A stretch of 46,037 nt of DNA, from sequence record PQ850598.1; one strand, given 5' to 3'. Under the pieces are notes generated by a model. The model ran no database searches. It was given only the letters and a program-made list of their open reading frames with translations, and was not told where the DNA came from. The position numbers were made by a program, and so were the translations under genes. The DNA comes from Escherichia phage ClaudiaMuster_Bas77. Every line of letters starts with the position of its first letter. Position 1 is the first letter of the stretch. This document shows positions 1-46,037 of the stretch, piece by piece.

Positions 1-489
1 ATGTGCAGACGCGAAATGAAAATGCATGGTGCTACACAAAAAATCATACAAATGGTAGATGAAATGAAGCTAACAAAAAAACAACGCGAAGAGCTACGCA
101 TGAAGTTCGGTGGTCGCTGTGCTTATTGTGGGTGTGAGCTACCCGAGAAAGGTTGGCATGCAGACCATGTTGAACCAGTGCTACGTAAATCTGAACAGTG
201 CATGAAGGCAGCGGCGAAAGGGATTTTCAAGCTGAAGGCAACCGGTGAGCTATATCGACCAGAAGCCGAGCGACTGGAAAACCTTTACCCTGCGTGCGCC
301 CCCTGCAATCTGATGAAAACTTCCTATTCCCTGGAAATGTTCAGGAAGCAGGTATCTCTTCAGGTTGCTCGTGGGCGCAAAAGCAGCATGAATTTCCGCA
401 CTGCAGAGCGTTTCGGTCTTATCGCCGTGGTGGAGAAACCAGTTGTTTTCTGGTTTGAGAAATACCAGGAAGAGAACGAAAAAAAATAA
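1..489 (+). CDS. HNH endonuclease (terminase-associated)
   Basis: Track ORF 162 aa; HNH motif elements GGRCAYCGCEL ... WHADHVEP ... ACAPCNLMK (CxxC, H-x-D-H, CxxCN); lies immediately upstream of terminase genes. True start uncertain (window edge; internal ATGs at 16 and 51). Confidence 0.7.
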   Translation: MCRREMKMHGATQKIIQMVDEMKLTKKQREELRMKFGGRCAYCGCELPEKGWHADHVEPVLRKSEQCMKAAAKGIFKLKATGELYRPEAERLENLYPACAPCNLMKTSYSLEMFRKQVSLQVARGRKSSMNFRTAERFGLIAVVEKPVVFWFEKYQEENEKK

Positions 490-669
490 ATGTGTTTATG
501 ATGCTCTGTTGGCAAGCGCGATAATGATGGTGTACAATAAACGCATAACCACCATTGCTTTCACTCATATCATCACCCAACCTTTAATCCGCCTTGTGCG
601 GGTTCTTTTTTATCTACGTCTATGTGTTAAAATTAGCGTATGTGAGTTACTCAAAGAACACAAAAAGAC

Positions 670-1113
670 ATGGCGAATCCAAATCCAAAACACAAGTTTT
701 CCTCTACAAATCAACCGCCTCCGCGCGGTAAGAGTTATCGCACAGTGCTGCTTGAGGCGCTTCGTGCTGCAAATACACCGATGAATGAGATTGAATTCGT
801 CACGTATTACATCAATAGGGCCATGACATGCGAAGACGCTCAGGCAACTGGTATGCTTCGAGAGATATTCCTGCGGCTCAACCCAATTCCTAAGCCTGTA
901 GCTCCTCCTGTGGAGTTTGACTTCCCTGCTGACGGAACTCCGGTTCAGAAAATGGATGCAATCATCAAGGGTGTATCCACTGGCGTTGTGCCTGCTGACA
1001 TAGGCAAGATGATGGCTGACATTATCAAGTCTGGCCTTGATATTCAGGAAATCACCGAACTCGCCGCGCGACTTGAGCGACTGGAGAAATTACTGGAGCA
1101 GCAGAATGCGTGA
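670..1113 (+). CDS. putative terminase small subunit
   Basis: 147-aa ORF directly upstream of the large terminase, C-terminal coiled-coil (ELAARLERLEKLLEQQ); assignment by position and size only. Confidence 0.45.
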   Translation: MANPNPKHKFSSTNQPPPRGKSYRTVLLEALRAANTPMNEIEFVTYYINRAMTCEDAQATGMLREIFLRLNPIPKPVAPPVEFDFPADGTPVQKMDAIIKGVSTGVVPADIGKMMADIIKSGLDIQEITELAARLERLEKLLEQQNA

Positions 1114-1253
1114 TGTTGTTACGTGGTGCTTTGTGGCATCTATCGCTATGAGCATGATCAGCGTCATTACGCCATCGGGAGATTTTGCTGGAAGCATATT
1201 CGGTTTTATGTTCCGGATATCAGGATTGGTTATCGCTTGGGGGCGGATTCGAT

Positions 1254-2678
1254 ATGGCTCGTAAACGACTCTCCGCGCTGGCAATCGAAAAACTTGAACA
1301 GGTAGTTGGCAACTCAACTGCAAAGCCTGAATCAGCAGTTTTTGGGCTTGTAGATAAGTTACTTCAGGATGGTTCTCCCAATGTCGTAAAGCGACTTAAG
1401 ATGACAGTCACTGGGGTATCTGAAACTGATGAAGAGCCAACAATATTAATTCCTGAGCGGATGGAGCTTATCCTTTACCCACGGCGCTTTAAGGTGTTTT
1501 ATGGTGGTAGGGGCAGTTCCAAGAGCCGAACGTGTATATCCTACCTTATCGAAAAGGCAAGGTTCCGCAACAGTCGCGTTGGTTGTTTTCGTGAGATACA
1601 GAACTCAATCAAAGAATCAAGCTATGCAGAGCTGGTCGATGAGATAAACAGGAAGGGGCACGCTCAGGAATATCGTTGCGTTGATGGTGAGATAACGCAC
1701 CACTCAACGAGATCAAAGTTTGTTTTCCGTGGACTGTGGCGAAATATAACCGCCATCAAGGGTATGGCTGGTCTGACTGATGTATTCTGCGAAGAGTCTG
1801 AAAACATCAGTCAGGTGTCATGGGATACGCTGATTCCAACAGTTCGCGCCGCTGGCTCTGAAATTATTATTGTTTTTAACCCAAATAAAGAGACAGACCC
1901 GACGTGGACTAACTTTGTTGAGCCTTACATCGACAAGATGGTTGATGGCATATATCAGGATGATGACATAGTTGTTGTTAATGTTAACTACGTCCACAAC
2001 CCGTGGTTCACGGAAGAACTTAAACAGCATATGAACCAGATGAAGGCGGTGGATTATGACCGCTATCTGTGGGTGTATGAAGGATTATTCAACAAGCGGT
2101 CTGAGGAAGCTGTGCTTGGCGGGAAATGGCAAACGCTGGACTTCGAGCCATCTCCCGAATGGGGAGGGCCATATTATGGCATTGACTTTGGTTTTTCTCA
2201 GGATGCAACCGCAGCAACAGAATCATATGTAGAAGATTTGGGAGATGGGCGCAGAAATCTATATATCTATCGTGACTTTGCAAAGGTTGGCCTTGAGATA
2301 ACTGACACGCCGGAAGCGATGCGCTCAGCATTCCCAAATTCAGAGAAGTACAGGTGGTATGGGGATTGCGCAAGGCCTGAAACAATAAGCCATATACGAC
2401 GATCTGGATTCGATATTCATCCGTGCGCAAAATGGCCGGGTAGCATTGAGGACGGGATTACGTGGCTGCGTGGGTGTGACAGAATTTACGTACACTCAAG
2501 ATGTAAGCACGTCATTGAAGAGATGACAATGTACAGCTACAAGGTGGATAAATTAACAGGAAACATACTCCCTGACATAGTTGATAAGTACAATCACGCG
2601 ATTGATAGCCTACGCTATGGCCTTGGTGACCACATCGTTCAGCGCGGTAGCGGAATGCTAATCCGGCGCAGGCGATAA
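1254..2678 (+). CDS. terminase large subunit
   Basis: Track ORF 1185..2678; ATG at 1254 (MARKRLSALAIEKLEQ) preferred; P-loop YGGRGSSKS near N-terminus, ~475 aa, followed by portal module. Confidence 0.85.
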   Translation: MARKRLSALAIEKLEQVVGNSTAKPESAVFGLVDKLLQDGSPNVVKRLKMTVTGVSETDEEPTILIPERMELILYPRRFKVFYGGRGSSKSRTCISYLIEKARFRNSRVGCFREIQNSIKESSYAELVDEINRKGHAQEYRCVDGEITHHSTRSKFVFRGLWRNITAIKGMAGLTDVFCEESENISQVSWDTLIPTVRAAGSEIIIVFNPNKETDPTWTNFVEPYIDKMVDGIYQDDDIVVVNVNYVHNPWFTEELKQHMNQMKAVDYDRYLWVYEGLFNKRSEEAVLGGKWQTLDFEPSPEWGGPYYGIDFGFSQDATAATESYVEDLGDGRRNLYIYRDFAKVGLEITDTPEAMRSAFPNSEKYRWYGDCARPETISHIRRSGFDIHPCAKWPGSIEDGITWLRGCDRIYVHSRCKHVIEEMTMYSYKVDKLTGNILPDIVDKYNHAIDSLRYGLGDHIVQRGSGMLIRRRR

Positions 2679-2694
2679 ATCCGCATAACCACAC

Positions 2695-2723
2695 TTGACC
2701 AATCTACACCGAGCGCATAGTAT
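2695..2723 (+). promoter_or_regulatory. sigma70-like promoter (TTGACC-17-TAGTAT) carrying two AATCTACA motif copies
   Basis: TTGACC at 2695-2700, 17-nt spacer, TAGTAT at 2718-2723; directly after terminase stop and ahead of a block of small genes. Confidence 0.55.
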
Positions 2724-2754
2724 AATCTACATCATGCTTACCGGAGATATCACT

Positions 2755-2961
2755 ATGCGCAGCTATGCAGGATTCACACAGGAGGAAAAAGAGCAGGTTT
2801 ATTCACTGGCTCGGGCTGGTGTGCCTGATGATGTGATTTGCCGTCGGTATGACATCGACGAGGATTTCCTGCTGCGCGTTTTGGATGACGTTTTCGTTAA
2901 CCTGCAGGAGAAGCGCGGGTACAAGGGTATCTGCTGCAAGAATGATTTTTTGAGAGGGTGA
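2755..2961 (+). CDS. hypothetical protein (68 aa)
   Basis: Track ORF 2695..2961 begins inside the promoter; ATG at 2755 with GGAG 9 nt upstream (MRSYAGFTQEEKEQ...). Confidence 0.5.
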   Translation: MRSYAGFTQEEKEQVYSLARAGVPDDVICRRYDIDEDFLLRVLDDVFVNLQEKRGYKGICCKNDFLRG

Positions 2962-3167
2962 TTATGAGGGGTTTTGTAAGAGATTTCCTGTTTATTGGCA
3001 TTAAGTACACCATTGCACTGGTGATTGCTGTTCCGCTTATCTGGTTGATTAGATGGGAGGAGCCAAGTATTGATGACATTATAAACTGGCAGGTTTTCAG
3101 ACTTGTTATCGGCTTGTGGATTATTTCAGCTATTGCCGCATGGTGGATTAATCATGTTCAGAAATAA
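2958..3167 (+). CDS. small membrane protein (2 predicted TM helices)
   Basis: 69-aa ORF, hydrophobic stretches FLFIGIKYTIALVIAVPLIWLI and LVIGLWIISAIAAWWI; start overlaps upstream stop (ATGA). Confidence 0.5.
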   Translation: MIMRGFVRDFLFIGIKYTIALVIAVPLIWLIRWEEPSIDDIINWQVFRLVIGLWIISAIAAWWINHVQK

Positions 3168-36455: not shown

Positions 36456-37400
36456 TTATAAATTAAACTGTTTTTTGAACCATTCAGGCGTTTCCATTTC
36501 TATGACAGGATTACCCATTGAATAACCGGGCCACGAATTGGCTTTTTTGCACGCCTTGTAAATTTCCATAGCGCCATGCAACTGAATTCGACCGATGCGT
36601 AATTGCTCTTCAGTCAAGCGAATTAACGCAGGAATAAATGGTGCTTTCTTTTCCTGAACGAGAAGATTAACAGAGCGTGGCGCATGACCATATGCCGCAA
36701 CAAACATGTCGTGCTGCATCGCCATTTTCATAAAGTACCCAAGTCTCGCAGCATGACGGAAAAACTCTTCTGGCTTGGCGCTCACCGCTGTTTTGTAGTC
36801 GATGATGTCGCCACCTTTGGTAAGGCAGTCAAAGCGAACTTTTGCCTTCTCTCCGTTAATTTCACCTAGAATTGACACTTCAGCATAAGCACCAGCGAGA
36901 AGACTGCTGTAATAGCTGTTTGCGTGGATTACAGCACGCATTTGCTGAATAGCGTCATAATCACCACCTTCCAGCATTTGCTTTCCTACAGCAGCTTTTT
37001 CAGCCTCTTCACGGATGACATCGTAAATTTTCACTGGCTCGCCAGTCGCCTGGATGATTTTGATCACCTCAGCTTTCGACTTTCCTGAAAGTCCTTTGAT
37101 GCCTCGTTCTTTTGCCCATGAGTTCATATCACTTACAGTAACAAGCAGGTCATCACCAAAATCTTCTTTGGTTGGCATTCGTGCATATTCAGCATCAAAA
37201 CGCTCTGGTTCAAGCAACGCAGTATGGCTACCTGTACCGAATATAAGAGCTTTTGATTGCTCATCCTCTTCGTCTTTGTATCGCCATGCTGCTGGGCATC
37301 TGTCAAGTATATTCCATAATCCAGAGCCATTAATATGCTCTGTGTCTGCGTGGTAATCTTCATTACTGAGTTCATTATTGAAATAGACTTTCATCATCAC
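36456..37400 (-). CDS. PD-(D/E)XK family exonuclease
   Basis: 314 aa; D ... IIDYK core motif (RFDCLTKGGDIIDYKT); position in the recombination module. Confidence 0.55.
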   Translation of the reverse strand: MMMKVYFNNELSNEDYHADTEHINGSGLWNILDRCPAAWRYKDEEDEQSKALIFGTGSHTALLEPERFDAEYARMPTKEDFGDDLLVTVSDMNSWAKERGIKGLSGKSKAEVIKIIQATGEPVKIYDVIREEAEKAAVGKQMLEGGDYDAIQQMRAVIHANSYYSSLLAGAYAEVSILGEINGEKAKVRFDCLTKGGDIIDYKTAVSAKPEEFFRHAARLGYFMKMAMQHDMFVAAYGHAPRSVNLLVQEKKAPFIPALIRLTEEQLRIGRIQLHGAMEIYKACKKANSWPGYSMGNPVIEMETPEWFKKQFNL

Positions 37401-38023
37401 TCTCCGTGGTTACAGAATTCTTTATGCATCTTTTCTCTGAATTTCATCACAGACAACCTCGCTCTCTCAATATCATTGAATAACCCAAGATGGTATCTTT
37501 TCCCGTTAACATCACAGTAAGCCTGCCACTTTTTAACCTGTTTTTGCCAATACACACCTTTAACTCCTGATGTGTTATTTTTTGGTTTTTTAGCGTTATA
37601 CTGGTTCTGCATATTTGTTGCGATTCTTAAGTTGCAAATCCTGTTATCGTCACGCACGCCGTTAATGTGATCAATTTGACCTTCAGGCCAGAAACCATAA
37701 TAAATCAACCATGCCAAGCGATGCGCGTAGTATCTTTTATTATTTATGCTTATCTCTATGTATCCGTTATGTTTTTTCCTGCCAGCGACACTACCCTTTC
37801 TTATACCTCCACCCGTCTTATTTCTAATGAAAACCCCCGTTTCAGGGTTGTAATTTAAGCTATCCAAAACAACATCACGTGGTATTCTTTTTCTTCCTCC
37901 TATGGTGTTTGACTCTGCACTTCCCTGAGCAAAATCTTGCTTTTGCAGTTCCGATAAACTCATTTCCACAAACCTCGCACTTCTTAACGGTGATAGCCAT
38001 TTCTTATCCTCTATTGTAATCAT
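37397..38023 (-). CDS. HNH homing endonuclease with AP2 DNA-binding domain
   Basis: HNH segment YAHRLAWLIYYGFWPEGQIDHINGVRDDNRICNLRIATNMQN; AP2-like segment SGVKGVYWQKQVKKWQAYCDVNGKRYHLGLFNDIERARLSVMKF. Confidence 0.7.
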   Translation of the reverse strand: MITIEDKKWLSPLRSARFVEMSLSELQKQDFAQGSAESNTIGGRKRIPRDVVLDSLNYNPETGVFIRNKTGGGIRKGSVAGRKKHNGYIEISINNKRYYAHRLAWLIYYGFWPEGQIDHINGVRDDNRICNLRIATNMQNQYNAKKPKNNTSGVKGVYWQKQVKKWQAYCDVNGKRYHLGLFNDIERARLSVMKFREKMHKEFCNHGE

Positions 38024-38082: not shown

Positions 38083-38509
38083 CCAGCAAGCCAAAATAGA
38101 AAAGTGTGGCTTTTTTTAGTTCATCAAGACCGTAAGCGATGGCTGCATAATGACCAAGCCTGCACATCTCTGTTAGAACTGCTGATTGATCCTTGCTCAC
38201 TCTGCTCTTACTTTTGTCACGGCGCTTTGCCTCAATCATTCCGCAGCAGTGGTTCGCACCCGGAGTCATTATTACGTTATCGCCTATTCCAGGCTTAACC
38301 CCCATCTTCTGGCGCTTCAGTACGAACTGGACGCGGCTGGATGTTCCTGTTTCATTCGGGACGTGAAACCATAGCACATCAGGGAAACAGTGTTGCATCC
38401 ATGTACCGTAACCCATCTGGTCAGTCTCCTCTTTTGGGCATTCGCCGCGATAACCGCTATCAAATACCCATATACCGCTATCAAGCTGCTTCACTTTGTT
38501 CTCCTGCAA
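38069..38509 (-). CDS. VRR-NUC domain nuclease
   Basis: 146 aa; PGIGDNVIMTPGANHCCGMIEAKR fits the VRR-NUC catalytic pattern (D ... ExK). Confidence 0.55.
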   Translation of the reverse strand: MQENKVKQLDSGIWVFDSGYRGECPKEETDQMGYGTWMQHCFPDVLWFHVPNETGTSSRVQFVLKRQKMGVKPGIGDNVIMTPGANHCCGMIEAKRRDKSKSRVSKDQSAVLTEMCRLGHYAAIAYGLDELKKATLFYFGLLDDVD

Positions 38510-40418
38510 AATCTTTTCTATGGATTATGTCGCGACCTTTATCATTAATGCGATGAGTGATGCGTTTTGGCGCTTTAATCAATCCAGCATACATCATGAA
38601 CTGCTTAGCATTCTGGCATTTCAGGATTTTCCCCGCCATTGACTTATCATCAAGGTGAGGAAAAATAGCCTTTGCCTTGAACATGTTTTTCATGTGAGTC
38701 GCACCGCCATATGGGTAGAAAACTTCGTTAGCCCAGCCTTCTTTGCCATCACAACGATTAATCCAGTAGCGATACAAAATACCTTCTCCATCCTTTGTTA
38801 GCTGGACTTTGAAATCAATAACATCAGCCCACTCATTATCGGTATACGCACGCTCATTCAGTGCCGCATTCGGGTCGCGCAACACGTGATCGCAATGCCG
38901 GCAATAGCGCGCCGTTGGGTCGTTTTTAGTGCCGCATCCATCATCAAAAATCCGTATTCCGTGCTTATCAAAACCGCAACGAATATAACTGAAAAACTCC
39001 TCGCAGCGACCATCTGGCGACAATGCATCTTTGCCAATGCATCGACGCGCATATGGGCTGTTCATTGTTCCACATGTATGACACGGAACTTGTTCGCCAC
39101 TGCGTTTTGAACGTTGCGCTTCAGCTTCTTCCAGAATTGGGTCTTCATATAGCTGACCAAGCTCAAACATCGTGCCTGAGAAATCAAGAACCAGATGGTT
39201 TTCTTTATGATACCCGGCGTCAATTTGGTCTTTCTTCAGCAGTCGCATTCCGCGACCAAGCAACTGAACAAGAAGGGTGAGCGACATTATTTTTCGCAAT
39301 ATAACGCTTGTATCCCATAGCGGGATGTTTACGCCGGTCGTCAAGCAACCAATTTGGAAAACATATTTAATCTTGCCAGTGTATGCATCCTTTAATGCCT
39401 TGCGTCTGGCTTTCTGTCCCATATCTTCGGTGACGATCGCATAACTTCCTTCAGGTAGGTATTTTGCCGCCTCCTGACAGTGCTTCTTGCCAGCGCATGT
39501 AATCAATACGCCGTTTCTGTTTTTTGTCAGCTCCATAACCTTGAGCATGATTTTCTGCGTGAGTGTTCCTTGCTCAAGGATTTCTTTCTGCATCTGCTTG
39601 AGTTGCTCGGTGGTAAATTCCTGAACTCCATCACTTCCTGACGCCTCAAATGCTGACAGGTCGTAATGCAGATCATCAATATCATGAAGACCAAAAATTG
39701 TAGGGACAAGAAAGCCATTATCAACAAGGTATTTGGTATCAATATTTATTATTTCATGCTTCCAGTAAGAACCCTTAATTGACTCAGTTCCACGAAATGG
39801 GCTGCCAGTGTAGCCAATAACAATGACATCGTGTCCGTATTTAGCTTTGCACCTACGGTTAAATTCGGTCATTATTACGCCGTACTGTGTGTCTGAATCT
39901 TCTCCAACAATATCCTCCCAGTTCACTTGATGGCACTCATCAACCAAAATATATCGTGGGCAAAAGTCTGAAAGTGCACACTTTGAGATAACATTGCCTG
40001 ATTCATCCTTTATGTCGAAAAGTGAGTTTTTTATTGTTCTCTCCGTCCCAGCAATAAGCGGGTATGCCGTTGACTTTCTGCCAAGAGACGCGCTGAAAAG
40101 TGAGTTTTTAACACTCAGATTCCATAGCTCTTCCGCATCCTGCTCAATAATTTCCCCCTGTCTGGCAATAACAAGGCCTTCCCACCCCATATCCTGAAAG
40201 CGTCGCGCAATCATGGCAATCATAATGGTCTTTCCAGCACCTACAGATGCCGTCACAAAACTTGGCTTAGGGTCTTTGCCAAACTTGCGGATAACTTCAG
40301 CCGTCTTTTCATAAACCAGCCACTGATATGGTCGCGGCTCAATCTCACCCGTATGAACAACTGACCGCAATTTGTCTATATCCAATTCAGCAATCATTGC
40401 GTCTATTTTATGCGTCAT
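38481..40418 (-). CDS. SF2 helicase with C-terminal zinc ribbons
   Basis: 645 aa; Walker A SVGAGKT, DEAH-like ILVDECHQ, helicase C-terminal motifs (QLLGRGMR), then Cys clusters (CHTCGT...C, CRHCDH). Confidence 0.8.
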   Translation of the reverse strand: MTHKIDAMIAELDIDKLRSVVHTGEIEPRPYQWLVYEKTAEVIRKFGKDPKPSFVTASVGAGKTIMIAMIARRFQDMGWEGLVIARQGEIIEQDAEELWNLSVKNSLFSASLGRKSTAYPLIAGTERTIKNSLFDIKDESGNVISKCALSDFCPRYILVDECHQVNWEDIVGEDSDTQYGVIMTEFNRRCKAKYGHDVIVIGYTGSPFRGTESIKGSYWKHEIINIDTKYLVDNGFLVPTIFGLHDIDDLHYDLSAFEASGSDGVQEFTTEQLKQMQKEILEQGTLTQKIMLKVMELTKNRNGVLITCAGKKHCQEAAKYLPEGSYAIVTEDMGQKARRKALKDAYTGKIKYVFQIGCLTTGVNIPLWDTSVILRKIMSLTLLVQLLGRGMRLLKKDQIDAGYHKENHLVLDFSGTMFELGQLYEDPILEEAEAQRSKRSGEQVPCHTCGTMNSPYARRCIGKDALSPDGRCEEFFSYIRCGFDKHGIRIFDDGCGTKNDPTARYCRHCDHVLRDPNAALNERAYTDNEWADVIDFKVQLTKDGEGILYRYWINRCDGKEGWANEVFYPYGGATHMKNMFKAKAIFPHLDDKSMAGKILKCQNAKQFMMYAGLIKAPKRITHRINDKGRDIIHRKDFAGEQSEAA

Positions 40419-40433
40419 AGCTACTAACCTTTG

Positions 40434-40483
40434 TTGATGTTTCTACGTCAGTTAGCTTATACTCAATCTACACCAACAATCAA
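40434..40483. promoter_or_regulatory. divergent promoter region between helicase and primase-like genes
   Basis: Plus strand: TTGATG-18-TATACT (40434-40463). Minus strand: TTGATT-16-TATAAG (rc of 40456-40483). GTTTCTACGTCA and CAATCTACACCAA motif copies present. Confidence 0.45.
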
Positions 40484-40493
40484 GGGTCAATTT

Positions 40494-41447
40494 ATGAGAT
40501 ATGACTGGAAGGAAATCGAGCCAAAAATGATCGGCAACTGGCAGGCTGCCATCATGTCTATCGTCAATGTGGATAGCAGAGTTTTCAATGGCAAGCACCA
40601 GCCATGCCCTCATTGCATGGGGGTTGACCGGTTCCGTTGGGATAATCACTTCGAAACAAAAGGCGATGGCGGCGCAATCTGCAATCAGTGCGGTTCCGGC
40701 AGCGGCATGAATTGGCTGATGAAACTCTCCGGAATGAGCTTTCCTGAAGCGCTGGAGGCGCTTGGTGGATTCCTGAACATGCACCCGCGCGAAAAGCTGG
40801 AGGCAATCAGGAAGGAGCTACCGAAGATAAATTATAGCGATGACTTCATCACTGAGCAGGAAGTCGCCGCAATAATGGCTAAAACGACTCGTGTCGCGAT
40901 GAATGAGTGGACTTTGATAAATGGTATTGGTTGCGACGTTAACGTCACCAGAGGCAAATCTGGAGAACTTATTGCGGTTGAGATGATGCGAGCTGACACA
41001 ATGAAACTGTGCAACGTGGCATTCATTGGCATGGATGGTGATTCAATCAGAACGTTTTTCCGCGCAGGATACAACAAGGACTCAGCCATCAACGGCAAAC
41101 TCACGCGCGGCGCGATAAGCCCAATCGGAGAAGACAACGGGAAGTTCATTTACCTGGTATCTGATTATGCCGATGCGTGGAAGTGCCATTACTTCACTGG
41201 CGCGCATGTCTGGTGCTGCTGGTCGCCGGAAAACATGTGGGAAGTGGTGCGCTCTGTTAGCAATGAGATGAAGTCACGGTTACGCTGCATAGTTAATTAT
41301 AAATTTGACGAACTTTGCGCTGCGGAAAACGCAGGGATTCCGGTGATGCTTCCTGATGATGCCGACACTATCAGGATGGCAAAGAGAATCAGGAGAAAGA
41401 TTTATGACGCTGGCGAGTTGATAGAAAAAATGTCAGTCAACAGATAA
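40494..41447 (+). CDS. primase-like protein with N-terminal zinc ribbon
   Basis: Track ORF 40431..41447; ATG at 40494 (MRYDWKEIEPK); CPHC ... CNQCGSGSG zinc-binding motif; divergent from helicase; primase assignment is contextual. Confidence 0.45.
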   Translation: MRYDWKEIEPKMIGNWQAAIMSIVNVDSRVFNGKHQPCPHCMGVDRFRWDNHFETKGDGGAICNQCGSGSGMNWLMKLSGMSFPEALEALGGFLNMHPREKLEAIRKELPKINYSDDFITEQEVAAIMAKTTRVAMNEWTLINGIGCDVNVTRGKSGELIAVEMMRADTMKLCNVAFIGMDGDSIRTFFRAGYNKDSAINGKLTRGAISPIGEDNGKFIYLVSDYADAWKCHYFTGAHVWCCWSPENMWEVVRSVSNEMKSRLRCIVNYKFDELCAAENAGIPVMLPDDADTIRMAKRIRRKIYDAGELIEKMSVNR

Positions 41448-41478
41448 AAGAAACCCTCCATATGGAGGGTTTTTTGTT
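41448..41478. terminator. bidirectional rho-independent terminator
   Basis: CCCTCCA ta TGGAGGG hairpin followed by TTTTTT. Confidence 0.65.
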
Positions 41479-41893
41479 ATTTCTTGAACTCTGGTGCTTC
41501 AGTCCAGAAGGCTACATTTCGCAGAGACTTACTCGTGTGATTGCACCAGTATATTCCTGAGTCATCATACTTGGCAGTAACCTTGACGCGATCAGTATCA
41601 ATAATAACAACCTCCTGCCCATCTTTAGGGTCGAAAAGACGCGCATCCTTCCAGTTAGCAATCTCATTAAGGGAAAGAAGAACATAGCCTGGAAGATAAG
41701 CGCCGACATCAGCAATGTGAACTATTGTTCGCTCCGTTCTCTCTCCTGTGTAGTCGCCATTCCACTCATAAAGAATAACCGTGTCTCCAACCTTAAAATC
41801 ACGATCGTTCTTCCTTAGTTCCGCCTTCTTGTGTCCGGTAACAACAGGCCAGAAGTGCTCAGGTAAGATTTTTAGTTCGTGTGTTTTGCTCAT
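41477..41893 (-). CDS. DUF3850 / ASCH-like domain protein
   Basis: 138 aa; N-terminal HELKILPEHFWPVVTGHKKAELRKNDRDFKVGDTVILYEW fits the DUF3850 (ASCH-fold) signature as recalled. Confidence 0.5.
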   Translation of the reverse strand: MSKTHELKILPEHFWPVVTGHKKAELRKNDRDFKVGDTVILYEWNGDYTGERTERTIVHIADVGAYLPGYVLLSLNEIANWKDARLFDPKDGQEVVIIDTDRVKVTAKYDDSGIYWCNHTSKSLRNVAFWTEAPEFKK

Positions 41894-43470
41894 TTCAACC
41901 CCCTCATAAATCTCATGCGCTTAACAGCAGCAGAAAGATAATTTCTAACCGTTGAGTTCATTCGCAGTCCATCCCATGAACCATCGCTGCACATCTTAAT
42001 CGCTCTTGGGTTATCTCTGTCCAGCATTAGTGGTGAATGCTTATTCTCCTCAATCGCAAGAAGAACCTCATAAACAAATTTATCAGGTGTTAGTGTGATG
42101 TTATTAGAGTCAGCAGAATTAATTATCTTTTTAATTCTATCACGACACAGCTTGTTCTTTATAACAGACAAGTAAGGCGTTTTAATGAATGCCTGTGACT
42201 CACAAATTCGCTTAATTTTTTCTACAATGTTCTCCCATTCAGTATTTTCAAGTCCATCAAACTCCTGTTCGCCCTCAAGGAATCTTTGCAGACCAGCGAG
42301 ATGCTCAAGAACCACGATATATCCCCATTCGACATGCTCCATCGTAACTGCTGGCGTCATTCCACGGCGACTTGACAGATCTGCGTAAGCCGCAAGAGTT
42401 GCAAGGTCTACAATCATCAGCCCCATGCGCGGGATAACGTCACCAACAACACCATCGCGATCGCCAAGCTCACTTTCCAGTTTCATAGACAGAGATCTGT
42501 GCAGCTTTTTCACTTCATCATCAGCCCATACAGCGTTAGTTTTCGCGGTAAGAATCCTACCTTTCCACTCATTGATTATTTTTCTTGAAATTGTGCCGCT
42601 AACTTCCACATCCTTCATCGCTGGCATTTCCTCACCAGCAAGATGTCCAAGCTGGAACAGCACTCGCCCCATACCGCCATCTTTCTGCCATGAACGCGCA
42701 GCATCTATTCCCTGCTCTGGAGTGACAGTAATCAGCGGAACAAATTTTGCGTTTTCAATTCCACCGTCTTTTGTTGCAATTTCGTATTCATTCATTGCCG
42801 ACTTGAGCGCGCGACCAACGCTGTGGTCCATCATCGCAAGGCGCTTATAATCTATGACGCCTTTACCATCATCACCACCAGTGAGTGGAACTATCCATCC
42901 CTCAGCGCTTGCTGCCGCCATAATGCGTTTTGGGTTTTGTTCCCAAGTAAGGTTTTCAAGCAACTCCTTTATTATTGGCCTGTTAGGAACCCACACTCCG
43001 CCGTCAGTAAGACCTCTATACCACGCCATAGTGCCGCCAAGATATGCATTACGCGGGTTGTTCCAGTCTTCAAGATGTTGCTTATCATCGTTCACAACGT
43101 AGAGCAAAGACCCACCTCCAGCAATAAGGTCTAACTGCATCTGTTTTGTCGAGGTTGATTTAGATGCGCAAACTCTGGACCCTATTCCCAGCGCGTTGGC
43201 ATATGCCCTGACGAAACTCACCGGCGCACCCTTACCTGCACCAGAGCGAGCTACCAGAAATATGCCGGTATTGCAGATACTACCTGTTGGACCAATCAAA
43301 TATCGGCCAGCCATCGCCTGAGTAAGGCCCAATGCACCAGTTAAACGATACCTCTCACCATCATTACGGCGCTCAAAGTTTTTCGCAATCTCATCCATAA
43401 ACTCACCAAGTGCACCAGGAGCATCCCTATTCATACCCATAGCCATGGACTCAAAATCAATAGCGCCCAT
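41890..43470 (-). CDS. large hypothetical protein with P-loop-like motif
   Basis: Track ORF 41890..43485; ATG at 43470 overlaps upstream stop; ARSGAGKGA glycine-rich loop; no confident family. Confidence 0.45.
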   Translation of the reverse strand: MGAIDFESMAMGMNRDAPGALGEFMDEIAKNFERRNDGERYRLTGALGLTQAMAGRYLIGPTGSICNTGIFLVARSGAGKGAPVSFVRAYANALGIGSRVCASKSTSTKQMQLDLIAGGGSLLYVVNDDKQHLEDWNNPRNAYLGGTMAWYRGLTDGGVWVPNRPIIKELLENLTWEQNPKRIMAAASAEGWIVPLTGGDDGKGVIDYKRLAMMDHSVGRALKSAMNEYEIATKDGGIENAKFVPLITVTPEQGIDAARSWQKDGGMGRVLFQLGHLAGEEMPAMKDVEVSGTISRKIINEWKGRILTAKTNAVWADDEVKKLHRSLSMKLESELGDRDGVVGDVIPRMGLMIVDLATLAAYADLSSRRGMTPAVTMEHVEWGYIVVLEHLAGLQRFLEGEQEFDGLENTEWENIVEKIKRICESQAFIKTPYLSVIKNKLCRDRIKKIINSADSNNITLTPDKFVYEVLLAIEENKHSPLMLDRDNPRAIKMCSDGSWDGLRMNSTVRNYLSAAVKRMRFMRGLK

Positions 43471-43760
43471 CAATATACCCTCCATACTCGCAAGAATTTG
43501 CCAGGGATAATACCTTGTTTCACAGTTACCACCGCACCAGCCCTGTCAGCCTCAATTTTTATCGCCTTCTGAAGTGACGTCATTGTCATCTGAAAACCTC
43601 GCTCTATATCGTATGCGTAGCACCCATCTCTTCCACCAATCAAAATTGAAGTTGAATACCCGTTCTCAAAGTAAAACTGACACCCATCAGGAGCTGTAAG
43701 ATTATTTATCACGTCGTGAGCAAGAGATGTCGTGACAGGGAATATCTGAGCGCAACTCAT
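43470..43760 (-). CDS. hypothetical protein (96 aa)
   Basis: Track ORF 43470..43772; ATG at 43760 with GGAGGTAGGT RBS. Confidence 0.45.
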   Translation of the reverse strand: MSCAQIFPVTTSLAHDVINNLTAPDGCQFYFENGYSTSILIGGRDGCYAYDIERGFQMTMTSLQKAIKIEADRAGAVVTVKQGIIPGKFLRVWRVY

Positions 43761-43762
43761 AC

Positions 43763-44002
43763 CTACCTCCACCCCATGTGTAACAATAAAATTTCGTCTT
43801 TATCAACATTCACCAACACCTTGATACCCATATCCATTGAAACAATACTGACATTTGTTCGAAAACTCGGTAACCCCATCGCGCGCGCACGTTCCCAATC
43901 TTCACCACAAACAAACCACCCATCATGCGTTCTCCTCAGGCGCTTAAGTAACCCGTACACCCACTCAAGATTTGACCCTTTACGGTAATTTAGTTCTTTC
44001 AT
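43763..44002 (-). CDS. hypothetical protein (79 aa)
   Basis: Track ORF 43763..44056; ATG at 44002 with GGAGATGGAGG RBS (MKELNYRKGSNLEW...). Confidence 0.45.
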   Translation of the reverse strand: MKELNYRKGSNLEWVYGLLKRLRRTHDGWFVCGEDWERARAMGLPSFRTNVSIVSMDMGIKVLVNVDKDEILLLHMGWR

Positions 44003-44099
44003 ACTTACCTCCATCTCCAGTGACTCTAATTTTATATAAATAAAAAAGATATGCAATTCTAATATGTGCTGGCTGTACAGTTTGGCTAATTTTTGCTCG

Positions 44100-44510
44100 A
44101 TTTATACCGTCTTTACCTGGTTTTTACCGTGCTATTTTTGATGCAACTAATTGATTAATAAGATTTTACCGGTTTTACCGGATTTCTTAAGTGGTATTTT
44201 AATTATTAAGATTGGCAGTGTATTAATTTGATCTAATTTTAATAAACTTAAATAAAATCAATATATTAATATGAATGAATAACTTACTTACCTCTATAGA
44301 ATTTACCGGGTAAAACCGGTAACTCCTCCGCAAGCCGCGCCATTGCTGGCTTCATTTTTACCACCTGTAGGTAAATACAGTAGTTTTTAAGTGATAATTG
44401 TTTTGGTAAGCTGTTGATTACCGGTGCTTTATTTAAAAAACCGGCATTTACCGGTATTTTGTGGAGTGATTAATAAGTGCGCAATTAGTCCTTGTTTACC
44501 AGAATCAACA
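44100..44510. repeat. iteron array (TTTACCGG core, at least 9 copies) flanking an AT-rich core
   Basis: Copies near 44112, 44122, 44163-44186 (tandem pair), 44301-44328 (palindromic pair), 44354, 44416, 44436-44459 (pair) and 44493; AT-rich stretch 44200-44290; no ORF. Confidence 0.6.
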
Positions 44511-44530
44511 AGTGCGAAACCTAAATAATG

Positions 44531-44559
44531 TTGACGTAGAAACATCATTGATGTAGATT
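44531..44559 (+). promoter_or_regulatory. sigma70-like promoter (TTGACG-17-TAGATT)
   Basis: TTGACG, 17-nt spacer, TAGATT about 30 nt upstream of the 44590 ATG; contains GACGTAGAAAC and GATGTAGATTG motif copies. Confidence 0.55.
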
Positions 44560-44589
44560 GAACTCATCGGAACAAACGAGGGTGAAGAG

Positions 44590-44775
44590 ATGAACAAAGA
44601 AAGCACGTACAGCATCGACCAGATGAAGTTGTTCAGCGATATATGCATGGCATTGTCACAACAGGTTCCAAGTCTACCTGCTGATATGCGCTCAAATGCC
44701 ATCATTGATGCGGCAAACATGATTTGTGAGGCATATGCTATGACTGAAGATGAATATAAGGCATCGAAGAAATGA
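44590..44775 (+). CDS. hypothetical protein (61 aa)
   Basis: Track ORF with GAGGGTGAAGAG RBS. Confidence 0.5.
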   Translation: MNKESTYSIDQMKLFSDICMALSQQVPSLPADMRSNAIIDAANMICEAYAMTEDEYKASKK

Positions 44776-44867
44776 CAGGCGCAGCATTCGAGCTTATCTC
44801 CAGTCTGGTTATCGTGGCATTCATCATTATCGCAGTGGCGGTTTCTAAATCAGGGTATAAGGAGTAA
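44772..44867 (+). CDS. small membrane peptide (31 aa)
   Basis: Hand-translated: MTGAAFELISSLVIVAFIIIAVAVSKSGYKE; ATGA overlap with upstream stop. Confidence 0.35.
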   Translation: MTGAAFELISSLVIVAFIIIAVAVSKSGYKE

Positions 44868-44870
44868 CAA

Positions 44871-45053
44871 ATGGCAAAGACTATCTATCGTCGCGAGAAA
44901 CTGGAGCCTGAACTCGGTCACGTTGGCGCGCAAAACTTTATGAGCAAGCAGGCACGCAATGCAATGGAATCTATACGCGTGAATCGCGTTGTGCGCGTGT
45001 TTAACGGTGAAGGTAAGCGAAGAGTAATGGATGAACTGATTATCGTATTTTGA
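44871..45053 (+). CDS. hypothetical protein (60 aa)
   Basis: Track ORF with strong AAGGAG RBS. Confidence 0.55.
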   Translation: MAKTIYRREKLEPELGHVGAQNFMSKQARNAMESIRVNRVVRVFNGEGKRRVMDELIIVF

Positions 45054-45089
45054 CATCGATTCAGCAGGCTTATTTCTAATGGTGATGAT

Positions 45090-45317
45090 ATGGAAAAAGT
45101 AAAAACATACGAGTTCTGGTTTGTGCAGAACAAAATGTATGCAAGCAGGACAATCAAGAGAGTCAGCTGGTGGAATAAGTGGTTAATCCTCTCCGGCTGC
45201 ATCGTGCTGGCAAAGTGCAAATTCAAAGCGATTGACATCACTGATGAAAACGCACTCAAAATCGCAAAGATTGTGTTTGAAGAGGATGGCTATTACGAAG
45301 AAATTATGGGGGGTTAG
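45090..45317 (+). CDS. hypothetical protein (75 aa)
   Basis: Track ORF. Confidence 0.5.
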   Translation: MEKVKTYEFWFVQNKMYASRTIKRVSWWNKWLILSGCIVLAKCKFKAIDITDENALKIAKIVFEEDGYYEEIMGG

Positions 45318-45320
45318 GGT

Positions 45321-45602
45321 ATGAGTGAAGTTAAAACGTATGCAGTAAACTGCAACGACGCGTGGCTTAATACAGATGGTGATGACATCTCTGGCTCATA
45401 TGTTAAGTATGCTGATTACGCAGCTCTTCAAGCTAAATGCGATGAGCTACTTAAAGAAATTAAAAACATGCAGGACCAAGCCCTTGATGATGGATGCCGA
45501 ATTACAGAGCTTGAAGAAGCCTTGCAAGATAAGCAGGCACTAATTCCTGATGAGCACGACACCACCGCTCTGCAATTCGAAAGCCTGGCTAAAAGTGAAT
45601 AG
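45321..45602 (+). CDS. hypothetical acidic coiled-coil protein (93 aa)
   Basis: Track ORF with GGGGGTTAGGGT RBS. Confidence 0.5.
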   Translation: MSEVKTYAVNCNDAWLNTDGDDISGSYVKYADYAALQAKCDELLKEIKNMQDQALDDGCRITELEEALQDKQALIPDEHDTTALQFESLAKSE

Positions 45603-45665
45603 CCACCCATTCATATTAATTATCAGTGCGCTCTATGTGGCGCACGCTTTAGTGGAGGAATACAT

Positions 45666-45773
45666 ATGACCAGACACCAACGACGAAAGCACACCACTGG
45701 CGCTAAAATATTTCTTGCTGTTTATGTGCTGGCATTGGTAGCAGCTATCGCAGGAGTAGTGCATTATGTTTAA
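45666..45773 (+). CDS. small membrane peptide (35 aa)
   Basis: Hand-translated: MTRHQRRKHTTGAKIFLAVYVLALVAAIAGVVHYV; GGAGG RBS. Confidence 0.4.
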   Translation: MTRHQRRKHTTGAKIFLAVYVLALVAAIAGVVHYV

Positions 45774-45945
45774 CGATATCAGTGACGCAATGCAAAACAT
45801 GTGGGAACGATACTGGAACAGCATGAAGACGTGTCACTACATGATGGTACAGATAGGTAATTACATTGAGGTTGTGCCTGATACTGGTGTTCACAACATT
45901 AAGTGCATGTGTTCTACGAGGGCTTTTGCGAATGCAAACAACTAA
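45766..45945 (+). CDS. hypothetical protein (59 aa)
   Basis: Hand-translated: MFNDISDAMQNMWERYWNSMKTCHYMMVQIGNYIEVVPDTGVHNIKCMCSTRAFANANN. Confidence 0.4.
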   Translation: MFNDISDAMQNMWERYWNSMKTCHYMMVQIGNYIEVVPDTGVHNIKCMCSTRAFANANN

Positions 45946-46037
45946 GCATAAAGTCTGGCAACTCGCCAAACAACACGAATTAGACGATTTCATCGCGAAG
46001 GTTGCAAAGACATTCCCTGACGCGCTTGAAGTCGTTC
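45932..46037 (+). CDS. hypothetical protein, 3'-truncated at window edge
   Basis: ATG at 45932 (MQTTKHKVWQLAKQHELDDFIAKVAKTFPDALEVV...) runs off the end of the window. Confidence 0.3.
   Translation, partial: MQTTKHKVWQLAKQHELDDFIAKVAKTFPDALEVV

Follow-up and report, generated by a model that had tools for sequence, protein, structure and literature searches.

A repeat array around an AT-rich core, exchanged together with an MCM-like helicase gene, is a probable replication origin of Escherichia phage ClaudiaMuster_Bas77

What is the role of the array of short repeats that occupies the gap between two divergent operons of Escherichia phage ClaudiaMuster_Bas77 (PQ850598.1), and which protein would read it? 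The gap in question spans 44003-44589 (587 bp) of the 46,037-nucleotide stretch of DNA analyzed here, hereafter the window. A sequence-only reading had proposed an origin built from iterons and an unwinding element, with the protein encoded at 41890..43470 as the initiator candidate. Our results on the co-variation of the repeats with the helicase, and on the exchange of both as one block, point the same way, and we consider it likely, from these sequence comparisons, that 44102-44502 is a phage replication origin of the type that works with a self-loading helicase-initiator, matched to the adjacent helicase. Sequence inspection and a promoter scan also bore out the gene context described in that reading, with the minus-strand operon (encoding the 79-aa, 96-aa, 526-aa P-loop and ASCH-domain proteins) starting at 44002 and a plus-strand promoter at 44531. 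From left to right, the gap contains the following features.

44029..44056, minus strand: predicted leftward promoter, recognized by eye (TTGCAT at 44056..44051, a 16-nt spacer, TAAAAT at 44034..44029)
44102..44181, plus strand: left iteron cluster, all copies pointing to the AT-rich core (TTATACCGT at 44102, TTTACCTG at 44112, TTTACCGT at 44123, TTTACCGG at 44165 and TTTACCGG at 44174)
44182..44301 (120 bp), no strand: AT-rich core, candidate DNA-unwinding element, placed by GC content and by its equivalents in related loci
44302..44323, no strand: right proximal iteron triplet (TTTACCGG on the plus strand at 44302, inverted CGGGTAAA at 44307, inverted CCGGTAAC at 44316)
44324..44349, no strand: GC-rich block TCCTCCGCAAGCCGCGCCATTGCTGG adjoining the core
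44357..44375, no strand: palindrome TTTACC-ACCTGTA-GGTAAA, two facing iteron half-sites (44357/44370)
44417..44502, plus strand: right distal iterons (ATTACCGG at 44417, AAAACCGG at 44437, TTTACCGG at 44447 and TTTACCAG at 44495)
44531..44559, plus strand: rightward sigma-70-like promoter TTGACG-17-TAGATT, outside the exchangeable cassette and part of the phage backbone, preceding the plus-strand gene at 44590

The repeats are concentrated in this gap far above chance. Specifically, four of the five exact copies of TTTACCGG in the whole window lie here, on the plus strand (44165, 44174, 44302 and 44447), leaving a single copy in the other 45.6 kb (Poisson P ~3e-10 from the outside rate), and the TTTACC hexamer occurs 10 times in the repeat region versus 21 times in the remaining 45.6 kb (P ~2e-14). 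The count of at least nine copies given previously holds when one mismatch is allowed, which yields 10 copies of TTTACCGG within 44112-44502, two of them on the minus strand (44307-44314 and 44316-44323), but not for exact copies, which number four. Both the tandem and the palindromic strings that had been quoted are present (TTTTACCGGTTTTACCGG at 44164-44181 and TTTACCGGGTAAAACCGGTAA at 44302-44322), and the tandem pair at 44166-44179 has a perfect 14-nt inverted copy 129 nt away, at 44309-44322. The left cluster holds four to five copies in one sense, while the right side is mixed, with four same-sense and three inverted copies, such that it forms an imperfect mirror of the left in repeat orientation. 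Between the two lies the AT-rich stretch, which is real, since 44181-44290 includes the lowest-GC 100 bp of the 46-kb window, although its description as about 90 bp of almost pure A/T was overstated, the GC content being 17-18%.

Conservation within the group follows the same elements. The intergenic region is ~82% identical in ASO78B, ZCEC08 and Bas81, and alignment with ASO78B and Bas81 shows no change in the repeat cores, in the inverted triplet (44302-44323) or in the palindrome (44357-44375). The Vi II-E1 GenBank record marks two of that phage's own CCCCACG repeats simply as 'repeat_region'. The description of the gap as ORF-free needs qualifying, as it contains two minus-strand ORFs, of 36 aa (44223-44333) and 39 aa (44429-44548), which the near-identical Bas80 record lists as hypothetical proteins; we found no support for either. 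An Rfam scan of 43900-44700 matched no RNA family. A DnaA-dependent origin was also considered: a search scoring exact DnaA boxes (TTATCCACA) returned no match anywhere in the window, the unwinding element included. Finally, the GC-skew inflection that had been suggested as a check gives no independent support for an origin, because the skew changes sign exactly where the direction of transcription does.

Among phages, the helicase operon is swapped together with the repeats and the AT core, in a single block. The region around the repeats is 99.8% identical to that of Escherichia phage ChristineMuster_Bas80 from the BASEL collection, and the relatives of the window include Salmonella phage Vi II-E1 (Macdonaldcampvirus) and Skatevirus phages. 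Compared with Bas78, the window is 99.9% identical over its first 3 kb, which include the large terminase gene, and 98.6-99.5% identical at 40912-41480 and 44529-46037, whereas the 3,048 bp at 41481-44528 are ~99% identical to Bas80 and do not align with Bas78 at all. The window is a mosaic, with Bas78-like flanks and a Bas80-like 3-kb block inside, and the right end of the swapped block falls 2 bp before the -35 element of the rightward promoter. The comparison with Bas78 amounts to a clean natural experiment, in which near-identical flanks enclose one swapped 3-kb block. The genes concerned are listed below.

40461-41447: DnaG-type primase gene
41481..44528, minus strand: exchangeable replication cassette, as defined by alignment with Bas78 and Bas80 (ASCH gene, helicase gene, two small-protein genes, leftward promoter, repeats and AT core)
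41477-41893, minus strand: ASCH-domain protein gene, a member of the minus-strand operon
41890..43470, minus strand: MCM-like (SF6, DUF3987-related) P-loop helicase of 526 aa, proposed initiator and replicative helicase
41890..42180, minus strand: C-terminal domain of the helicase (~residues 431-526), winged-helix-like, proposed iteron reader
43470..43760, minus strand: small protein of 96 aa, whose stop codon overlaps the helicase start codon, with homologues in related loci
43763..44002, minus strand: protein of 79 aa, first gene of the leftward operon, a weak member of the family of helicase-adjacent small proteins

The slot that receives the block is bounded by the DnaG-type primase gene on one side and by the conserved rightward promoter on the other, and in other phages it holds different combinations of helicase and repeat.

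Bas78, Vi II-E1, DS8 and HC6: classic DUF3987 helicase (120 bits), CCCCACG repeats flanking an AT core
Segz_1 and seszw: 495-aa helicase with GGGATAA repeats
YX3973: Prim-Pol-PriCT_2-DUF3987 fusion with TAAATGCCA repeats

One of these phages has been subjected to genome reduction. In Skatevirus seszw, the bearer of the sister GGGATAA cartridge, CRISPR-based deletion showed that 53 of the 81 genes can be removed (PMC9825161). The seszw mutants among the 60 records listed, whose genomes go down to 38.1 kb from 45.9 kb, all keep the helicase gene, and those of the MZ series also keep 'gene 51', an annotated ORF that falls within the AT core and right repeats. The repeat/AT region is kept in both mutant records that we examined in detail, the smallest having its 520-bp spacing intact. 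This retention, observed in a different cartridge from that of the window, is consistent with an essential cis element.

The constant partner of the array is a helicase. The 526-aa protein models as an MCM-like (SF6, DUF3987-related) AAA+ helicase fold, with a Walker A motif and a C-terminal winged-helix-like domain, in an AF2 model built from a 14-sequence alignment; an earlier model from six sequences reached a pLDDT of only 43 and was unusable. Direct searches with the protein returned no Pfam match (it scores below the PF13148 gathering threshold for DUF3987), no match in PDB sequence searches, and in PHROG only a weak match to the C-terminal part of 'primase' proteins, and aligning the family profile with the DUF3987 helicase of Bas78 by hhalign gave no significant match. 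The family is rare, with 49 matches at E < 1e-3 among 1.84 billion cluster representatives in an exhaustive profile search; this search reached the distant members, where a single-protein locus search had given one near-identical locus and a homologue search six clusters. Remote members do carry Pfam DUF3987 (P0022, at 40.5 bits against a gathering score of 27), and some are fused to Prim-Pol and PriCT_2, such that intermediate sequences, together with the predicted fold, suggest a link between the 526-aa protein and the DUF3987 family. The literature assigns proteins of that family to the SF6 (MCM-like) helicases of phage replication, with a C-terminal wHTH (PMC4889955), and for one of them 5'-3' helicase activity and binding to its primase have been demonstrated (PMC11724360).

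The sequence of the repeats varies with the lineage of the helicase. We compared 11 loci from metagenome and genome assemblies that encode helicase relatives (23-57% identical). Upstream of the helicase gene they share a layout of promoter, direct repeats, an 80-130-bp AT-rich core and mostly inverted repeats, which was seen wherever the contig was long enough (the short contigs of L017 and L018 end before the far side). The AT core of every related locus mapped has 12-19% GC over 80 bp and lies between repeat clusters. The repeats themselves vary as follows.

AGTTACCGG: L007, L010 and L011 (TTACCGG core)
TTTACCGG: L013 (TTACCGG core)
GAGTTCCCG: L012 (GTTCCCG)
TTTACCYGATGATCCGG: L014
TTTACTAYG/TTACCATGA: L015
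GACTTCY: L016
TTTAACCG: L017
TTTACCAAA: L018
AATCACTGG: L019

At least eight motifs occur across the 11 loci of this one helicase family, and three further motifs accompany the other DUF3987-fold helicases at the same locus. This co-variation suggests that the repeat sequence is specific to its cognate helicase, as in the Rep-ori systems of the SaPI satellites. The arrangement is also shared: in the seven window-family loci with a located AT core, the left copies are 38:3 in one sense and the right copies 34:15 in the opposite sense, and neighbouring copies lie 8-12 bp apart, or about one helical turn, in the nine loci measured (Bas78 included). Further details recur, such as the right proximal triplet, which is recognizably conserved in L007, L010 and L013, a comparable pair of like-oriented copies on the far right of the array in L010 and L011, and strings related to the GC-rich block TCCTCCGCAAGCCGCGCCATTGCTGG in L017 (CTGCAAGCCGCGCCATTACTGG), L013 and L007, despite helicases that are only 30-47% identical. 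Three of the loci, L014-L016, are embedded in different phage backbones, adjoining packaging or lysis genes, which indicates that the array travels with the helicase gene rather than with its surroundings.

These same loci bear on the idea, already raised in the sequence-only reading, that the repeats are packaging signals, namely a pac site recognized by the terminase. In the distant loci L014, L015 and L016 the repeats adjoin a divergently transcribed small-terminase-like gene (GP3_package), and the rightward operon of the window leads toward the terminase genes; both observations favor such a site. A pac site would be expected to lie in or beside the small terminase gene and to follow the specificity of the terminase; instead, the window and Bas78 share a first 3 kb, large terminase included, that is 99.9% identical, yet their repeats are entirely different (TTACCGG in the window, CCCCACG in Bas78). 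Because the type of repeat follows the helicase and not the packaging genes, we regard a packaging function as barely credible.

An origin still leaves the question of which protein reads the repeats, and here the comparison of L012 with the TTACCGG group is informative. The helicase of L012, with its GTTCCCG repeat, is 57% identical to that of the window and closer to it overall than are those of L010, L007 and L013, which share the TTACCGG core. Among the positions invariant in the TTACCGG group, those changed in L012 are enriched toward the C terminus, with 20 of 68 in residues 401-526 versus 14 of 134 in residues 1-400 (Fisher P = 0.0012), and they include a change from KNKLCRDR (438-445) to KSGLCRGR plus a 3-residue insertion in the predicted hairpin. 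Such clustering fits the precedent of the SaPI Reps, whose C-terminal winged helix reads the iterons. That L013 shares the TTTACCGG repeat, yet has a C-terminal domain only 35% identical to that of the window, makes the case a modest one, and by sequence comparison and analogy we see the assignment of the C-terminal domain as the reader as finely balanced.

Alternatively, the region could be an origin whose repeats are read by the 96-aa and/or 79-aa proteins, which would mark the origin and recruit the helicase much as lambda O recruits P-DnaB. Their position is suggestive: in 9 of the 11 related loci the helicase gene is immediately preceded by a homologue of the 96-aa protein (67-97 aa), and the 96-aa stop codon overlaps the helicase start. 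The 79-aa gene opens the operon behind a good Shine-Dalgarno sequence (GGAGGT). A loose family connects these proteins, with a member in Bas78 as well; a profile of the helicase-adjacent small proteins scores the 76-aa protein of ASO78B at 32 bits, the 79-aa protein of the window at 12.5 and the 72-aa protein of Bas78 at 12.1, against 4.7 for the best of 350 shuffles. Moreover, by eye, their predicted helix/strand pattern could fit a small DNA-binding fold, the DS8 gene at this position has a sub-threshold match to the AP2 DNA-binding domain (20 bits), and the small proteins diverge fast, as a specificity determinant might. On the other hand, L015 and L017 have no small gene between the repeats and the helicase gene, and the similarity of the small proteins does not track the type of repeat: those of the TTACCGG-core phages are only 19-29% identical to the window's, whereas L012, whose repeat differs, has one sharing 44-47% identity with its counterparts in L010 and L007. 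Neither the 96-aa nor the 79-aa protein has a match in Pfam, PHROG or the PDB, and the SaPI Reps need no accessory protein (PMC9371898). We find reading of the repeats by the small proteins rather doubtful; given their absence from L015 and L017 and their similarity irrespective of repeat type, we rank them as accessory factors, a role that they may have.

The location of the array between divergent promoters, where regulator sites would also be expected, and beside genes for small uncharacterized proteins, raises the further alternative that the repeats are operator or activator sites through which a phage transcription factor controls both early promoters, with replication starting elsewhere. 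In iteron plasmids, the binding sites of the initiator commonly double as autoregulatory sites. The positions of the sites speak against a purely regulatory role. The nearest repeats stop ~45 bp short of the -35 element of the leftward promoter, which is itself predicted, and 28 bp short of that of the rightward promoter, such that neither core promoter is covered. The leftward promoter, a prediction made by eye, is too weak for the consensus promoter scan, and better promoters occupy the equivalent place in L010 (TTGACG-17-TATATT), L012 (TTGCAA-17-TACAAT) and L007 (TTGCTT-16-TACAAT). Since the scan yielded four matches versus the 3.7 expected from shuffles, promoter-like matches inside the AT core carry no weight. 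Further, 154 phage records share the rightward promoter and its leader (~44525-44590) irrespective of the repeats found upstream, which would be unexpected if the repeats were an operator specific to that promoter. An arrangement of ten or more sites, in clusters that face each other across 120 bp of 17-18% GC, has the anatomy of an origin and not that of an operator, and in the 11 related loci, as in the other cassette types, the array is constantly partnered with a replicative-type helicase. A pure operator array is unlikely, while autoregulation by a bound initiator is possible, as is a role as the master regulatory region that the sequence-only reading named as its alternative.

Returning to the reading of the region as an origin with a self-loading helicase, we infer the binding, melting, reader domain and start site as follows. 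The 526-aa MCM-like helicase would recognize the TTACCGG-core repeats, most likely through its C-terminal winged-helix-like domain. Because the repeats on the two sides face each other, two helicase rings could assemble across the 120-bp core, melt it and move apart, and the two promoters, firing away from the core, may aid melting through the negative supercoiling left behind. The DnaG-type primase (40461-41447), the phage SSB and a polymerase would then take over, the polymerase probably being that of the host, since the ORFs scanned in the replication module included none. As for the 96-aa and 79-aa proteins, they may act as accessory factors.

The closest parallel is found in the SaPI and other PICI satellites. 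Rep helicases of SaPIs, which belong to SF3 or SF6, use a C-terminal winged helix to bind 6-12 short iterons, and their origins have an AT-rich center between iterons, with at least two per side in opposite directions (PMC9371898). The array studied here shares the short iterons in many copies, the AT-rich center with at least two oppositely pointing repeats per side (plus some same-sense copies on the right), the lineage-specific repeats, and the SF3/SF6-type AAA+ helicase partner with a predicted C-terminal winged-helix domain. There are also differences. The SaPI origin lies immediately downstream of rep, whereas here the origin would lie upstream of the helicase operon, between divergent promoters, with two small genes and a promoter intervening before the helicase gene, though it would be adjacent to that gene and is co-inherited with it. 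Unlike in SaPIs, genes for one or two additional small proteins lie between the proposed origin and the helicase gene, the core of the repeat measures 7-8 nt (5-6 in SaPIs), and the system resides in a virulent coliphage rather than a satellite. The two systems have no detectable sequence similarity, and binding and melting are proposed for the one in the window.

A second parallel is phage P4, whose alpha protein binds octamer repeats (TGTTCACC) at ori through a C-terminal winged-helix domain and relies on the host polymerase. Both are phage-encoded primase/helicase systems with origin repeats and a C-terminal winged helix (predicted here). P4 alpha is an SF3 (D5-type) helicase fused to a primase, and it needs a second repeat site, crr, ~4.5 kb away; in the window, by contrast, an MCM-like helicase is accompanied by a DnaG-type primase with a gene of its own, and a motif count over the whole window revealed no second repeat site. 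As in ori-lambda with its O protein and in iteron plasmids (RepA/TrfA/Pi), the repeats, here proposed initiator sites, lie beside an AT-rich region, here a candidate unwinding element, and the proposed origin and initiator are exchanged together among related phages. The iterons of lambda, however, are 19 bp long, are contained in the O gene to one side of the AT region, and serve a protein that recruits the host DnaB via P, whereas the repeats here are intergenic and flank the core on both sides; plasmid Rep proteins are not helicases, while here the partner itself is one. We also compared the DUF3987/SF6 phage helicases (PMC4889955) and Cch of SCCmec; the window protein falls below Pfam detection of DUF3987, its own family being rare, and in the literature searched we found no description of iteron origins for phage DUF3987 helicases. 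In anatomy and partner, the region appears to be an origin of the SaPI or P4 kind, which is already known, and not a new kind.

An origin at this place will not surprise a specialist. Within the literature searched, which did not cover the 2008 E1 paper, we found no published replication origin for this phage group, so that a known type of origin would here be described for a group in which it has not been so far. Placing the origin of a common and tractable group of Salmonella and E. coli siphoviruses aids annotation, phage engineering and genome minimization, for which it marks a region to be kept, and it explains the mosaicism at this locus as the exchange of whole replication cartridges. 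More tentatively, and as a generalization that we hold slightly less likely than not, we propose that the Skatevirus/Macdonaldcampvirus group of virulent enterobacterial siphoviruses carries, in one fixed slot, a hot-swappable cartridge of origin and MCM-like self-loading helicase, each version of which would use a repeat code of its own, recognized by the C-terminal domain of the helicase, and would dispense with host DnaA and the host helicase loader. How self-loading helicases recognize and open their origins is still a question for the SaPI Reps (PMC9371898), and the many matched pairs of helicase and repeat offer a testable system in which to address it for MCM-like enzymes. If the cartridge proposal is true, then a dozen or more matched helicase/iteron pairs would be available in tractable BASEL coliphages, and these could reveal the rules by which bacterial MCM-like helicases recognize DNA and the geometry in which they load as double rings.

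By sequence identity, the window combines stretches of two BASEL phages, Bas78 and Bas80, in a mosaic. Its backbone is 98.6-99.9% identical to Bas78 (window 1-3000, 40912-41480 and 44529-46037), whereas the 3-kb replication cassette at 41481-44528 is ~99% identical to Bas80; left of this cassette, at 38490-40322, identity to Bas80 falls to 85%. The window also carries two HNH endonuclease genes, whose presence differs among relatives; HNH_3 genes lie near the primase in L007 and L011, two of the loci encoding relatives of the window helicase. The window HNH genes are probably homing endonucleases that add to the mosaicism.

1-489: HNH endonuclease gene, adjoining the terminase gene
37397-38023: HNH endonuclease gene (HNH_3 + AP2), within the replication module

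The small proteins of 67-97 aa encoded beside the helicase gene, in one or two copies per cassette, look from their sequences like a single fast-evolving family, present also in the otherwise unrelated-looking cassette of Bas78. Database searches with these helicase-adjacent proteins returned no match; in DS8, the gene at this position instead weakly matches an AP2 DNA-binding domain.

Window 43470-43760: helicase-adjacent small protein
Window 43763-44002: helicase-adjacent small protein
Locus L002, 2616-2846: helicase-adjacent small protein
Locus L004, 2878-3096: helicase-adjacent small protein

Several further features lie within the candidate replication origin, with the promoter and leader just to its right.

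44163-44190 (-): promoter-like match TTAAGA-16-TAAAAT, overlapping the tandem repeats
44223-44333 and 44429-44548 (-): hypothetical proteins of 36 aa and 39 aa, as annotated in the Bas80 GenBank record
44324-44349: GC-rich block TCCTCCGCAAGCCGCGCCATTGCTGG, immediately right of the inverted repeat triplet
44525-44590: rightward promoter, leader and ribosome-binding site, TTGACGTAGAA...GATGTAGATTGAACTCATCG..AACGAGGGTGAAGAGATG

The two Bas80 hypothetical proteins lie in the AT core and the repeats to its right, and a 79-aa "putative membrane protein" is annotated at the corresponding place in the Skate and seszw records; all of these short ORFs are probably over-calls on origin DNA. Promoter-like matches equaled chance expectation (4 versus 3.7), while terminator-like matches exceeded it (3 versus 0.6). 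All three of the latter are short hairpins that consist of copies of the repeat itself, formed by repeat pairs, such as ACCGGCATTTACCGGT followed by a T run (44440-44455). The promoter-leader segment at 44525-44590 is 88-97% conserved among the 154 matching phage records; these include one deposited as an Acinetobacter phage (vB_AbaM_AB4P2), which looks out of place.

Strings resembling the GC-rich block occur at the corresponding position in L017, L013 and L007, despite helicases that are only 30-47% identical; the block could possibly be a priming site, a site for a second protein or a recombination scar. Phages seszw and Segz_1 carry a sister cartridge with GGGATAA repeats instead (L024, from Salmonella phage seszw, 6200-6560); the reverse complement of these repeats, TTATCC (e.g., TTATCCATT and TTATCCATG), is similar to the DnaA box TTATCCACA. 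Host DnaA might be recruited by the seszw/Segz_1 cartridge.
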